From: a virus
Virus record (IMG/VR): IMGVR_UViG_3300042465_000293
Coordinates: 3,241-67,240 of that record
Direction: 5' to 3' (one strand)
Length of the DNA stretch: 64,000 bases
Position numbers and translations under genes: made by a program. Every line of letters starts with the position of its first letter. Position 1 is the stretch's first letter. Below are positions 2,421 to 27,028 of the stretch, in pieces. A model generated the notes under the pieces. That model was given only the letters and a program-made list of their open reading frames with translations, did no database searches and was not told where the DNA came from.

Positions 2421-3101
2421 TCAGTCGTTCCTTCCGTTGTGTTGGCATGATAAAACAACACAGTGTCTCTTGCAAAGCCCTGACGTACGGGGGTTCCATA
2501 CGTTGGTCTCGTAAGCTCTTTTCATACGGCCATGGTCGCGGAGCCACTTCTCCCATAGCTTGGGCTCGTCCACGGCTCGGTCGTAGCTTGCCTTGGGGAA
2601 CTGCTTGGCGATGACAAACAACAGCCCACCCTTGACGCGCTTGACCTCGGGGAAGTGCTTGAATACGGCAAGCGCCATCAACTCAAGCTGTCCGGTGTCA
2701 GCGTATTTGGCACTCTTTCCGGTCTTGTAGTCAACCACCCGTGCAGTGCCATCGTCCTCAAGGATGATCAGGTCAGCGATGCCTCGCCACCACACGTTTG
2801 GGTCTTTGAATCCGCACGGCTCCAAGTCCTCGGTCAACCCCATCTCGTACTCACACAGCTTTTGGCCAGCGCGATGCTTGAGGTTATCCAATGAACTCTT
2901 AGCGTACGAGAACTGAGGGGGCAGGGGGGTGTCGTCACGTATGTATAGCTCAGCCGCCTCGTGAAAGGCGGTGCCGTAAATCAGGTGCTCTGCACCCTGA
3001 TCTTCTTGGAAGTCTTTGACAACCTTCAAGTGGTAGAACTTCTTTGGACACTGCTCGAATGTCTTGATCGACGAGAACGACCATGCGGGTATTTTTGTCA
3101 T
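2421..3101 (-). CDS. PD-(D/E)XK exonuclease (RecB/Cas4-like)
   Basis: WSFSSIKTFEQCP, GTAFH, RGIADL, VVDYKTGK, QLELMA, C-terminal Cys cluster. Confidence 0.88.
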   Translation of the reverse strand: MTKIPAWSFSSIKTFEQCPKKFYHLKVVKDFQEDQGAEHLIYGTAFHEAAELYIRDDTPLPPQFSYAKSSLDNLKHRAGQKLCEYEMGLTEDLEPCGFKDPNVWWRGIADLIILEDDGTARVVDYKTGKSAKYADTGQLELMALAVFKHFPEVKRVKGGLLFVIAKQFPKASYDRAVDEPKLWEKWLRDHGRMKRAYETNVWNPRTSGLCKRHCVVLSCQHNGRND

Positions 3102-3316
3102 GCTTTGCCTCTTGCTCGAATCTGTTCAGCAACTCCAGTACGTGGAAAACCATTGCAATTCCAATTTTCTGCAATGTCTGCGCAAGCCTCACGCTCTGCT
3201 TCTATTGCGCTGTTAACGAGCATCACCAAATGCGGGGTTGATACAGTCCACGTTGTGTAGTGCGTGTTCTCTTCCACCACTTTGCGCAACGCTTTAATAA
3301 TTTCATCTTGTGTCAT
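3098..3316 (-). CDS. Hypothetical phage protein (EREACA...IRARG type)
   Basis: 4-bp overlaps with both neighbours. Confidence 0.7.
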   Translation of the reverse strand: MTQDEIIKALRKVVEENTHYTTWTVSTPHLVMLVNSAIEAEREACADIAENWNCNGFPRTGVAEQIRARGKA

Positions 3317-23811: not shown

Positions 23812-24420
23812 ATGGCTTATCCCACGGTAGACGCCCCCTACGGGCTAAAACCTGTAAACCTAATTGGTGGACAGGTATTTGCGGGCGCAACCCGCTTGAT
23901 GCAAATTGCGAGTGGCTATGCCACCAGCATTTTCTATGGTGACTTGGTAAAACGAGTTGCTGATGGCACTATCGAAAAAGACACGGGCACCACAACTGCC
24001 ACGCCTTGCGGTATCTTCTTGGGCGTTCAGTTTACTAACCAGTCAACTGGTCAAGTCCAACAACAACAGTACTATCCAGCCAGCCAAGCAATCGCTTCGG
24101 GGACAAAAATCTTCGCTGTGGTCGCTGATGATCCTGATACGCTGTTCCAAGTAGTCTCTTGTTCTTCAGGCACAACTGTGGCTGGAATGGGCATTTCTGC
24201 TATTGGTAATAACATTGCTTTGATTCAAAACGCTGGCTCTACCACCACTGGTAACTCAGCAGTAGCTATTGATGAAGGCACTCAAAACACTACCAATACG
24301 CTGCCTATCCGCATCATTGATGTGGTTCGTGAGACAGCAACAGGCTCTGATACATTTGTTGAGTTTATCGTCAAGATAAATGCAACTATGCACCAGTACA
24401 ACAACTCAACCGGTGTATAA
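23812..24420 (+). CDS. Putative capsid decoration / cement protein
   Basis: APYGLKP, IFYGDLV, DDPD; directly before the major capsid gene. Confidence 0.65.
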   Translation: MAYPTVDAPYGLKPVNLIGGQVFAGATRLMQIASGYATSIFYGDLVKRVADGTIEKDTGTTTATPCGIFLGVQFTNQSTGQVQQQQYYPASQAIASGTKIFAVVADDPDTLFQVVSCSSGTTVAGMGISAIGNNIALIQNAGSTTTGNSAVAIDEGTQNTTNTLPIRIIDVVRETATGSDTFVEFIVKINATMHQYNNSTGV

Positions 24421-24431
24421 GGAGCTAAATC

Positions 24432-25340
24432 ATGGCTATTTCACGCGCACAACTACTTAAAGAACTGCTCCCCGGCCTAAACGCCTTGTTTGGTTTGGAG
24501 TACAAAAAGTACGGCGAAGAGCACAAAGAGATTTTCGAGACCGAAACCTCTGAGCGTTCTTTTGAAGAAGAAACCAAGTTGTCTGGCTTCAGTGCCGCTC
24601 CAGTGAAGAATGAAGGTTCTGCATTGGCGTACGACAACGCGCAAGAAGCGTGGACTGCACGTTACGTGCACGAAACCATTGCGATGGGTTTCTCTCTGAC
24701 CGAAGAGGCTATCGAAGACAACTTGTATGACTCGTTGTCCGCTCGATACACCAAGGCTTTGGCTCGCGCCATGGCTTACACCAAGCAAGTTAAAGCTGCT
24801 TCGATCTTGAACACTGCCTTTACTGGCGGCCCCACCTACGGTGACGGTCAAGTTCTGTGCTCGACAGCCCACCCTCTGGTGTCTGGTGGTGTTAACAGCA
24901 ACCGTCCTACTGTCGCTGCCGACTTGAATGAGACTTCCTTGGAAGCCGCTGTCATTCAGATCGCTGGTTGGACAGACGAACGTGGTCTGTTGATCGCTGC
25001 TCAGCCTAAGAAACTGATCGTCCCCCCAAGCCTGCAATTCGTTGCAACCCGTTTGTTGGAAACCGAACTCCGCGTCGGTACAGCTGATAACGACATCAAC
25101 GCGCTCAAGAACAACAGTTCTATCCGCGAAGGTTACGCTATCAACCACTACCTGACAGACAACAACGCATGGTTCTTGATGACTGACGTGCCTAACGGTT
25201 TGAAGCACTTTGTTCGTAGCCCATTGCAAAATGGTATGGACGCTGACTTTGATACCGGTAACAGCCGTTACAAGGCCCGCGAGCGTTACAGCTTCGGTGT
25301 TTCCGACCCTCTGGGTATCTTCGGTTCTCCCGGCGCTTAA
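24432..25340 (+). CDS. Major capsid protein
   Basis: MAISRAQLLKELLPGLNALFG, PKKLIVPP, RERYSFG; strong codon bias; terminator follows. Confidence 0.9.
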   Translation: MAISRAQLLKELLPGLNALFGLEYKKYGEEHKEIFETETSERSFEEETKLSGFSAAPVKNEGSALAYDNAQEAWTARYVHETIAMGFSLTEEAIEDNLYDSLSARYTKALARAMAYTKQVKAASILNTAFTGGPTYGDGQVLCSTAHPLVSGGVNSNRPTVAADLNETSLEAAVIQIAGWTDERGLLIAAQPKKLIVPPSLQFVATRLLETELRVGTADNDINALKNNSSIREGYAINHYLTDNNAWFLMTDVPNGLKHFVRSPLQNGMDADFDTGNSRYKARERYSFGVSDPLGIFGSPGA

Positions 25341-25358
25341 TATTTCTTTGGAAATAGT

Positions 25359-25389
25359 GAAAAGGGGCTCTTGTGGCCCCTTTTCTTTT
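25359..25389 (+). terminator. Rho-independent terminator after the capsid gene, overlapping a TTGTGG-17-TATATT promoter (25371-25399)
   Basis: gaaaaggggc-tcttgtg-gccccttttc-tttt. Confidence 0.8.
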
Positions 25390-25405
25390 GGTGTATATTG
25401 CTTTC

Positions 25406-25488
25406 AATCCGGGCTTTCCGGTGCATCAAACTGTCCCGGCAGACGACATACCGATTGATGCACTTAACTTGTATGTAAGGAACCTATC
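25406..25488 (+). ncRNA. Candidate structured cis-regulatory leader RNA (double pseudoknot)
   Basis: Four complementary segment pairs in ~70 nt; the last abuts the SD. Confidence 0.55.
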
Positions 25489-26028
25489 ATGGCACGCACT
25501 ACGTTTCAAGGCCCAGTTCGCTCGTTGGGCGGCATCTATCAACAAGGCCCCGCCTCTGTTGTTGAAATTACAACCAGCACCACACTGAGCCCCGAAGCTC
25601 ACGGCGGTCGTATCATTTCTGTCGGTGGCTCTTTGGCCGCTGCACTCACATTGACGCTCCCCACGATCAATGTTTCGACCAACCCGACCACGTCTGGCCC
25701 CGGTCAAGACCCCAATACACTGAACAACGAAGGCGTTGTCTACACCATCTGGGTTCCCACTACCATCTCCACCAGTTCGTTGAAGATTGGTACTAACGGT
25801 ACTGACAAGTTTATTGGTTCGGTAATTTCCGTGGACACCGACACCTCTGACGCAGTGGTAGGCTTTACCGCTGGTGCAAGCGACGACTTTATCAACTTTA
25901 ACGGCACCACCACTGGCGGCGTAGCAGGCACATGGATTCAGATCGTTGCTGTTGCTGCGCTGAAATACATGGTTACCGGCAATGTGTTGGGCTCAGGCAC
26001 TGTCGCTACACCGTTTGCCACTTCCTAA
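25489..26028 (+). CDS. Putative virion structural protein
   Basis: MARTTFQGPVRS; Thr/Gly-rich beta protein after the capsid gene. Confidence 0.75.
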   Translation: MARTTFQGPVRSLGGIYQQGPASVVEITTSTTLSPEAHGGRIISVGGSLAAALTLTLPTINVSTNPTTSGPGQDPNTLNNEGVVYTIWVPTTISTSSLKIGTNGTDKFIGSVISVDTDTSDAVVGFTAGASDDFINFNGTTTGGVAGTWIQIVAVAALKYMVTGNVLGSGTVATPFATS

Positions 26029-26036
26029 TCAACCCA

Positions 26037-26056
26037 AGGGGCTTCGGCCCCTGTTC
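26037..26056 (+). terminator. UUCG-tetraloop hairpin (weak terminator or stabiliser)
   Basis: aggggc-ttcg-gcccct-gttc. Confidence 0.55.
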
Positions 26057-26071
26057 TAAAGGAGATTGATT

Positions 26072-26545
26072 ATGGGTATGCAATATGATGTTAAGTCGCA
26101 ACACGCGGCTACCTCTGGCTTGATGGTTCCGTTTCGTACTCGTTTAAAGGGCGCGGTAATATTCCCTTTCAGCGGTGCTACGGGCTACTCGGCTTTTGTT
26201 GATAACACCTCGATTGCCGGTACGTACACACGCGCCACAACCACCGCAACTGTAACCGCAGCAAATCACGGTTTGTCTACGGGTCAGTGGGCGTATTTGG
26301 ATTGGGATTTGACCGACAACCCCTACCAAGTGACTGTGACAAACTCCAACGTCTTTACGGTAACTGTGGCTGATTCAGGCGCAGCAAGCGGTAGCGTGAC
26401 TGTGTACAACAAGATGTTGCTTCAGGCCGATGCCTCAAATGCAACGGCGTACACGATGGTGATACCCGGTGAAGGCATTTTGGTTGATAACGGCATTCGG
26501 GTGTTTTTGGCAGCAAGCATTCACTGCACGGTGTTCTATGGCTAA
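26072..26545 (+). CDS. Putative virion protein
   Basis: MQYDVK...IPGEGIL...TVFYG with internal ATVTAANHGL beta domain. Confidence 0.75.
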   Translation: MGMQYDVKSQHAATSGLMVPFRTRLKGAVIFPFSGATGYSAFVDNTSIAGTYTRATTTATVTAANHGLSTGQWAYLDWDLTDNPYQVTVTNSNVFTVTVADSGAASGSVTVYNKMLLQADASNATAYTMVIPGEGILVDNGIRVFLAASIHCTVFYG

Positions 26546-26792
26546 GAAGACCCCCTCCCTTGCTGTTGGTCGTGGCGAAAAGCTGCCTGCTTCCAAGGGG
26601 GCGGGTCTGACTGCCAAAGGCCGTGCCAAGTACAACGCTGCAACCGGCAGCAACCTCAAAGCCCCGCAGCCGCAGGGTGGCAAGCGCAAGGACTCGTTCT
26701 GCGCACGCATGAGTGGTATGCCGGGGCCGATGAAAGACGAGAAGGGTAAGCCCACTCGTAAAGCCGCTTCACTTGCGAGATGGAAATGTTAG
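26538..26792 (+). CDS. Small basic protein (DUF6321-like)
   Basis: GLTAKGRAKYN...NLKAP...SFCARM...LARWKC. Confidence 0.75.
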   Translation: MAKKTPSLAVGRGEKLPASKGAGLTAKGRAKYNAATGSNLKAPQPQGGKRKDSFCARMSGMPGPMKDEKGKPTRKAASLARWKC

Positions 26793-27028
26793 ATTTAAAC
26801 ACGGCATGGTCAGCAATCCTATCCTTAGTGATCGGATTGTTTGGCTATATGATGAATGAGAAGTTCAGGGAACTGACTCGCATCACGATCTTGCTGAACA
26901 AAACCCGTGAGGAGGTTGCCCGTGATAACGTCACTCAAGCAGAAGTGGATCGAATTACAAACCACATTGACCAACGCTTTAACAAACTTGAAGCAAAAAT
27001 TGACCAGCTTATTCAAGCGGGGAGATAA
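26780..27028 (+). CDS. Small membrane / coiled-coil protein
   Basis: N-terminal TM helix; LLNKTREEVA...LEAKID. Confidence 0.7.
   Translation: MEMLDLNTAWSAILSLVIGLFGYMMNEKFRELTRITILLNKTREEVARDNVTQAEVDRITNHIDQRFNKLEAKIDQLIQAGR

Follow-up and report, generated by a model that had tools for sequence, protein, structure and literature searches.

A conserved double-pseudoknot leader RNA in front of the capsid cement/spike-type gene of a widespread group of lake and ocean phages

The stretch of phage DNA analysed here (64,000 nucleotides (nt), positions 3,241 to 67,240 of the 67,240-base IMG/VR virus record IMGVR_UViG_3300042465_000293; hereafter the window) carries a gene for the major capsid protein (PHROG phrog_371, major head protein, E 4.4e-21; Pfam Phage_capsid_4, E 1.1e-13), which is followed by a strong intrinsic terminator (11 pairs, 6 of them G-C, and a loop of 5 in a terminator scan) and then by a gene for a 179-amino-acid (aa) capsid accessory protein of cement or spike-like type. 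We show that approximately 70 nt between these two genes, from about 25406 to 25476, constitute a conserved cis-acting double-pseudoknot 5' leader of the mRNA for this cement/spike-type protein. The leader is a real, strongly conserved, doubly pseudoknotted RNA. Its family is very widespread and is carried by phages of a highly abundant lake and ocean group.

A preceding sequence-only reading of the region had proposed a promoter followed by four interlocked helices (denoted here A to D) and had judged such an arrangement unlikely to arise by chance. Every hexamer and every pairing that it named is found at exactly the coordinates that it gave (Table 1). When positions 25406-25481 (76 nt) were subjected to mononucleotide shuffling, a perfect helix of at least 9 base pairs (bp) appeared in 135 of 20,000 shuffles, and a crossing set of helices of at least 5, at least 9 and at least 6 bp appeared in none of them. 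The nested folding energy of the single sequence is unremarkable in comparison with shuffles (minimum free energy -19.3 kcal/mol, z = 0.15), because the helices cross and the folding program is blind to pseudoknots.

Relatives of the locus were collected from IMG/VR by protein searches, for which the capsid protein and the downstream protein served as queries (at least 600 stretches each), and by two additional searches that queried distant versions of the downstream protein. Of 303 loci obtained, 232 contain the downstream gene and 218 contain its start with at least 110 nt upstream, which gave 171 unique leaders from related phage contigs. The motif could be parsed in 169 of these; the remaining two are a different leader (L041) and a leader with mismatches in helix B (L150). 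A structure-blind MAFFT alignment of 125 leaders (A3) was used for helices B and C. MAFFT aligned the core well but misplaced two outer strands, the 5' one of helix A and the 3' one of helix D; these two helices were therefore examined by a sequence-anchored test in which the partner found in a leader's own sequence is compared with partners found for foreign strands.

In the MAFFT alignment, 96.8% of the cells of helices B and C are paired, as against 62.5% in shuffles, and the covariation score for the two helices is 0.857, compared with at most 0.145 when the partners are slid by one to three columns; moreover, RNAalifold predicts exactly these two helices from the same alignment. Helix B displays both-sided changes in all nine of its pairs, with 95.9% of the cells paired. 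The outer pairs of helix C are invariant (C-G in 125/125 and G-C in 124/125 sequences), and its middle pair flips from U-A to A-U in 33 of the 125. For helix A, the 3' strand of which was defined as the five bases directly 5' of the 3' strand of helix C, 160 of the 169 leaders contain a Watson-Crick-perfect partner in the 25 nt that precede helix B, as opposed to 270 of 22,122 cross-comparisons (1.2%) with foreign strands; eight matched sequence types of this helix occur, one of them a complete flip. A covariance model that includes helices A and D (R2, from 19 close relatives) turned out to be too narrow, matching 67 of 100 loci at E of at most 1, and aligned helix D badly in distant clades, and it was used for helix A only. 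In the model-built alignment, which was fitted to helix A and is accordingly biased towards it, 99.7% of the cells of this helix are paired, compared with at most 57.5% for slid partners, and four of its five pairs change on both sides and none on one side only. For helix D, with the 5' strand defined as the six bases ahead of a conserved NGA, 107 of the 169 leaders have a perfect 6-bp partner in the interval from helix B to the ATG, compared with 4.1% for foreign strands; this helix exists in 12 distinct complementary versions, with both-sided changes at all positions. Among 1,497 cells, there are 59 G-U pairs and 5 A-C mismatches, an excess which indicates that the constraint acts on the RNA of the + strand. 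Covariation among homologous leaders had been named at the outset as one of the checks, and compensatory changes are indeed present in all four helices; together with the shuffles, they bear out the contention that the pairings are not a product of chance.

Seven columns of the structure-blind alignment are invariant (A25430, C25431, G25433, C25435, G25442, G25453 and A25454) and four more are conserved at 90% or above (G25439, C25440, A25443 and C25444). Read together with the helices, these columns identify the fold as a three-way junction in which each joining strand holds a single unpaired A (25430, 25443 and 25454). One arm is the 9-bp helix B; another is the 3-bp hairpin C, in the 6-nt loop of which nearly every base pairs with the 5' tail to form helix A, much as in kissing loops; and the third is a loop that is closed by the C25444-G25453 pair and pairs with the 3' tail (helix D). 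All 169 parsed leaders have this C and this G on either side of the D loop; the parser itself partly imposes the C but not the G. The earlier picture of four interlocked helices is thus refined to one ordinary helix and two loop-to-tail pseudoknots arranged around a small, sequence-fixed junction (helix order A5'-B5'-C5'-A3'-C3'-D5'-B3'-D3'), in which the three A residues presumably make tertiary contacts. The sequence is free in helices A, B and D and fixed only in the junction and in helix C, as expected for a self-contained fold. Neither linker is fixed in sequence or in length: 6-13 nt separate helix A from helix B, and 6-9 nt separate helix B from helix D. In all 100 leaders in which positions were assigned to helices A and D alike, the distance from the end of helix D to the ATG is 9-16 nt; the helix either abuts the Shine-Dalgarno sequence or ends up to about 5 nt 5' of it.

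Table 1. Features of the leader and of its flanking genes (coordinates refer to the window)
Feature	Position	Strand	Evidence or detail
Major capsid protein gene, 302 aa	24432-25340	+	Upstream neighbour of the leader; PHROG and Pfam matches
Intrinsic terminator after the capsid gene	25359-25389	+	Stem 25359-25385, then T run; terminator scan
Promoter-like site TTGTGG-17-TATATT	25371-25399	+	TTGTGG 25371-25376, TATATT 25394-25399; inferred from sequence; predicted start about 25406
Helix A, 5' strand (5' tail)	25409-25413	+	CCGGG; partner CCCGG 25435-25439
Helix B, 5' strand	25421-25429	+	GUGCAUCAA; partner UUGAUGCAC 25455-25463
Junction A between B and C, unpaired	25430	+	Invariant column, 125 sequences
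Hairpin C	25431-25442	+	Stem CUG 25431-25433 / CAG 25440-25442; 6-nt loop contains helix A 3' strand 25435-25439
Junction A between C and the D arm	25443	+	Column at least 90% conserved
D arm	25444-25453	+	Closing pair C25444-G25453; loop contains helix D 5' strand 25446-25451
Junction A between the D arm and B	25454	+	Invariant column
Helix B, 3' strand	25455-25463	+	MAFFT covariation and RNAalifold
Helix D, 3' strand	25471-25476	+	GUAUGU; partner ACAUAC 25446-25451; immediately 5' of the Shine-Dalgarno sequence
Shine-Dalgarno sequence AAGGA and start codon	25477-25491	+	Shine-Dalgarno 25477-25481, ATG 25489-25491; sequence and open reading frame list
Capsid accessory (cement or spike-like) gene, 179 aa, served by the leader	25489-26028	+	Open reading frame list

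A covariance model built from helices B and C (R1), run on the window with filters off, detects the motif there only once, at 73.7 bits (the runner-up scores 11.1 bits, E 4.6). It gives exactly one match per locus in 100 loci (430,799 bases). The same model matches before gp41 of the cultured SAR11 (Pelagibacter) phage HTVC023P (61.8 bits) and in the lake phage DSL-LC04 (56.3 bits), and it gives a weak match at the expected place in HTVC027P (22.1 bits), where the form is divergent by eye. A pattern scan of IMG/VR that is independent of the protein returned at least 120 stretches. Among the matches listed, R1 matched in 80 of 80 loci, and 77 unique leaders were parsed (one cut-off match was unparsable); helix A is perfect in 75 of these 77, the protein encoded downstream starts with MxxTTFxGP in 70 and is a near-variant in the remaining 7, and the downstream open reading frames (ORFs), cut or broken ones excluded, encode 121-315 aa. 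The association with the downstream gene persists where the neighborhood is rearranged. In a different set of 80 loci, 12 carry 781-2157 nt between the capsid stop and the cement start, and the motif stays beside the cement gene. One of these 12 is L078, the insertion of which (2436-3218) contains a 207-aa ORF that has no Pfam match and that we suspect, from its sequence, to be homing-endonuclease-like. In L345 (424-2678), the usual order is inverted, with the motif and a cement-type gene preceding a distant capsid homologue (38.6% identity). Furthermore, the same pattern applied to 596 billion bases of prokaryotic assemblies yielded 67 loci with 19 strong model matches, 18 of which adjoin an MxxTTFxGPV-type ORF or a capsid homologue. 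The nineteenth (L315) has neither beside it and is likely a false match. The assembly matches (L314-L380) are filed in metagenome-assembled genomes (MAGs) labelled Chitinophagales, Dehalococcoidia, Ignavibacteria, Paceibacterota, Nitrosopumilales and others, with one archaeon among them, and one match (L343) lies within a 1.1-Mb 'chromosome' record. Because the labels are scattered across unrelated phyla, we take these contigs to be mis-binned and draw no host from the labels; the matches are likely phage DNA mis-binned or mis-joined into MAGs.

The 179-aa protein shows no match to any PHROG or Pfam family above the cut-off. Its AlphaFold2 model is all-beta and of moderate confidence (predicted local distance difference test, pLDDT, 69.8); the best match among solved structures is the capsid spike of Pseudomonas phage Pa223 (9ny6_C, E 1.3e-4, template modelling score 0.40), and the matches among models of viral proteins are uncharacterised. 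The positional counterpart behind the motif in DSL-LC04 (L313 2902-3354) is annotated as 'cement protein' and has only the first 12 residues in common with the window protein. The same applies to all carriers of the motif: their downstream proteins share only the N-terminal 12-15 or so residues, MxxTTFxGPV(R/K)S, beyond which they are unrelated or very divergent (121-315 aa), with identity down to 39% and even with swapped C-terminal domains. Judging from this pattern of sequence conservation, the cement-type proteins look like a conserved capsid anchor combined with exchangeable outer domains. The third positions of codons 2-15 vary freely (1.3-1.97 bits), which rules out a role of the N-terminal codons as part of the RNA structure and identifies the shared N-terminus as a feature of the protein, probably the capsid anchor. 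The main text of the HTVC027P transcriptome paper contains no gene-level data for the cement-type gene.

Natural variants of the leader bear on the roles of the individual helices. In L201-L204, helix A is absent and the loop of hairpin C is UUCG/UUCA-like, extending the stem; in L201, L202 and L204 the motif is located about 85 nt before the gene start (1501) and directly 3' of a G+C-rich hairpin, with no obvious -10 box between the two. This variant fits an end-related or structural role of helix A. An alternative local hairpin, in which the 5' strand of helix A pairs with the linker (CCGG...CCGG, CUGG-GAAA-CCAG; 25409-25421 in the window), is found in 60 of 162 leaders. It is a feature of some freshwater types only, almost exclusively those in which helix A is of the CCGGG type, the UCGGG type or a portion of the CUGGG type, and in the two main marine types it occurs in 2 of 42 and 0 of 14 leaders; it may represent a folding intermediate or a switch.

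Two marine forms are described here in their own right. In the 'AAGCC' clade (L226, L239, L241, L251, L254 and relatives), the Shine-Dalgarno sequence lies within a small local hairpin in the last 25 or so nt before the ATG, the stem of which covaries by eye (AUUUCC/GGAAAU, AUUUUC/GAAAAU, AUUAAG/CUUAAU); the D loop, AAGCCAA, is kept in this clade and has no clear partner there. In Roseobacter phage CRP-902 (L312 2880-2935), a marine-form leader is present apparently minus the 3' strands of helices A and C (CUGAC-AAUAGCCAAGAC), and this remnant precedes a gene that still starts with MATST.

With respect to function, the sequence-only reading had envisaged a riboswitch-like, ribozyme-like or protein-binding translational control element for the downstream virion gene. 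A structured cis element of this gene is borne out by the compensatory changes, by the single copy and by the persistence of the motif beside the gene. A riboswitch or a ribozyme is argued against by the strict tie to one structural gene family (169 of the 171 leaders, and 77 of 77, with the seven near-variants included, among the matches listed in the pattern scan) and by the paucity of conserved unpaired bases, one A per junction strand. The interpretation that we tentatively prefer is that of a self-contained, cis-acting leader for translation and mRNA stability. Under this hypothesis, transcription would start at the leader's own promoter a few bases upstream of helix A, and the leader would collapse into one compact knot, in which 5'-end-dependent RNases would find neither a single-stranded 5' end nor an A/U-rich stretch to act on. 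At the 3' edge of helix D, the ribosome would meet the Shine-Dalgarno sequence and the AUG in surroundings that are constant and insulated. The outcome would be stable, high and reproducible translation of a protein required in capsid-like amounts, regardless of whether the message is initiated at the leader's own promoter or results from polymerase reading through the capsid terminator.

Several observations weigh against this interpretation. Canonical helix D is absent in 62 of the 169 leaders, all from low-G+C marine clades. In 19 of these 62, the D loop contains CUCC, with a possible 4-bp pairing to the Shine-Dalgarno GGAG, and in 41 it contains GCCR, with a possible 4-bp pairing to the UGGC formed by the start codon and codon 2; if real, such pairings would amount to occlusion rather than presentation of the ribosome site. 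These pairings were not accepted, being not significant alone, with some 4-bp match estimated to be expected by chance in a tail as long as this one. In the clade around L074 (L072, L080, L164, L165, L177 and relatives), a -10-like box (GTAGTATGAT or TATAGT) is followed by an extra hairpin of variable size, located 20-80 nt upstream of helix A, and then by the motif; helix A is therefore not always at the very 5' end. Related genomes without the motif exist, namely L041, CRP-902 with its deletion remnant, and Planktothrix phage Pag-Yong1, which has none. The start site and the effects on mRNA stability and translation are steps that we infer, and it is equally conceivable that a protein or a ligand recognises the invariant junction and helix C.

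The promoter belongs among these points. In a promoter scan of positions 24000-27000, none was called at a score of at least 9 of 12, the site in the window reaching 8 of 12. The hexamers and the spacing read from the sequence are present and the -10 element is partly conserved, and a promoter of the leader's own is plausible on these grounds, although it is the weakest part of the picture originally drawn. A score of at least 8 of 12 is attained in 63 of 160 leaders of relatives, as against 16% of shuffles, and in those 63 the gap between the end of the -10-like hexamer and helix A is 5-11 nt. Many other leaders possess a -10 box matching at 5 of 6 positions together with a poor -35 that overlaps the T run of the terminator. 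Clear sites of the form TTGAC(A/G)-17-TATGGT, located 15 nt upstream, are present in a few. Assembled contigs of relatives from RNA libraries (shares of at most 0.15) span the leader (25371-25482 in X1, 25305-25482 in X2, 25381-25482 in X3 and 25370-25468 in X10); such contigs reveal neither starts, ends nor strand, libraries of this kind may include DNA, and we claim nothing from them.

Among the rivals of the self-contained leader, a protein-bound translational operator, although rather unlikely, deserves the most attention. In this model the invariant junction and helix C would be read by a phage protein, for which the cement protein itself, the capsid protein and other late proteins are candidates; its binding would stabilise the knot and lower translation, matching cement output to capsid assembly in an autogenous-like fashion. 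Autogenous control is well known from T4 gene 32, the E. coli alpha operon with S4, rpsO with S15, and the P22 scaffold, and autogenous leaders typically show what is seen here, a strict association of the motif with a single gene family that persists across deep divergence. Moreover, the sequence constraint is limited to a small site, the junction A residues and the C-G and G-C pairs of helix C, and helix D reaches the ribosome-binding region in every clade, in some of them possibly the Shine-Dalgarno sequence or the AUG itself. However, the N-terminal residues common to all carriers are not basic, which makes the encoded protein a poor candidate binder, and the invariant pairs are explicable by tertiary contacts within the fold. 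If the junction instead bound a small molecule or an ion, and thereby stabilised helix D and altered access to the ribosome site, the leader would be a riboswitch, as would suit a compact pseudoknotted fold with an invariant junction that ends at the Shine-Dalgarno sequence; the alternative hairpin, which takes up the 5' strand of helix A in some freshwater clades (60/162), could then be the switch. We consider this improbable, given that the motif is restricted to a single structural gene family and is absent upstream of genes for metabolism or transport, that conserved unpaired bases are few, that the alternative hairpin is clade-specific, that canonical helix D is missing from the 62 marine leaders, and that no Rfam riboswitch family matches.

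The position just after a possibly leaky terminator, along with a size and a double-pseudoknot topology like those of small ribozymes, which are common in phage DNA, would be compatible with a self-cleaving ribozyme or an RNase-processing element that frees the cement message from capsid read-through transcripts. Such a role is hard to credit when no Rfam ribozyme family matches, when the helix order is not known from the hepatitis delta virus (HDV)-like, twister, pistol and hatchet folds, and when the conserved -10 box just upstream makes a cut unnecessary; furthermore, the motif is present in one copy per genome, at one gene, and natural variants without helix A or helix D persist. We give the least credence to an RNA that acts on RNA polymerase, by put-like processive antitermination, or in some other non-translational role, including one in trans. 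The motif does directly follow a promoter-like site and head a long run of + strand virion genes, but the tight, conserved spacing to the Shine-Dalgarno sequence and the ATG and the pairing of helix D with the translation start region are not needed for action on the polymerase, and in the terminator scan no terminator follows the motif to release a small RNA.

The leader had been put forward as novel subject to comparison with known RNA families. In a search of positions 24800-26000 of the window with Rfam 15 (4227 models), no family reached its gathering threshold; the eight matches at E of at most 10 (best 20.2 bits, against a threshold of 50) sit on the capsid terminator. In 16 diverse relatives (67,365 bases), the same library gave two unrelated matches at E of at most 1 and none on the motif. 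No description of the motif was found in the literature searched, work on pseudoknots in pelagiphages included. According to a 2023 catalogue (PMC10690425), 8,495 candidate RNAs were derived from IMG/VR intergenic regions, and Rfam is without a model for the leader pseudoknot of T4 gene 32; a nested version of the present motif may well be listed in the supplementary files of that catalogue.

The leader represents a new RNA family of a known general kind, the structured pseudoknotted translational leaders, with a fold that is uncatalogued where we searched: a three-way junction with two side arms, each of which locks onto one tail of the RNA. It is conceivable, if doubtful, that the knot is a sensor, that is, a new class of translational switch, or else a bacterial counterpart of the viral nuclease-resistant RNAs; were either the case, this would be a new functional RNA class with a fold not previously described. 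The natural compensatory variants of every helix, along with the variants that lack A or D, make both the structure and the role directly testable.

Comparison with known systems places the leader among several classes of compact RNA. No Rfam match gives it the conserved core of a small ribozyme, twister-sister and hammerhead included, and its helix order is not known from ribozyme or riboswitch folds. The preQ1-II, S-adenosylmethionine (SAM)-II, SAM-V and guanidine-III riboswitches are likewise small pseudoknotted leaders that end at the Shine-Dalgarno sequence, and SAM-V is present in SAR11-type marine genomes. The motif differs from these in that no model matches it, in that it stands only before a structural gene and in its far fewer conserved unpaired bases. 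The genes of ligand metabolism or transport that accompany such riboswitches are not found downstream of it, all verified copies preceding the MxxTTFxGPV family or its near-variants, and in most members the Shine-Dalgarno sequence appears to lie outside the helix, the CUCC:GGAG pairing being possible in only 19 of the 169 leaders. The flavivirus exonuclease-resistant RNAs (xrRNAs), likewise about 70 nt long, combine a three-way junction with two pseudoknots, for which the 5' end, the 3' tail and a loop supply the strands, and are compact and mechanically tough. There the partners are swapped relative to the phage leader, in which the 5' tail pairs with the hairpin loop and the junction loop with the 3' tail; furthermore, the xrRNAs reside in viral 3' untranslated regions rather than in a bacterial mRNA 5' leader, no Rfam family matches the phage leader, and the likeness is topological only. 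The leader of T4 gene 32 is also that of a phage mRNA, with a 5'-proximal pseudoknot serving one gene, but it consists of a single H-type pseudoknot and an unstructured A/U-rich stretch, whereas the leader in the window is folded throughout. The nested double pseudoknot of the E. coli alpha operon (rpsM), bound by S4, and the rpsO/S15 operator are pseudoknotted leaders as well, reaching the ribosome-binding site and acting in cis on one operon; there is no similarity to them in sequence or model, the helix order is different, and the present fold is built on a three-way junction and precedes a phage structural gene. With the autogenous operators it nonetheless shares a structured leader that abuts the translation start, the knot ending at the Shine-Dalgarno sequence.

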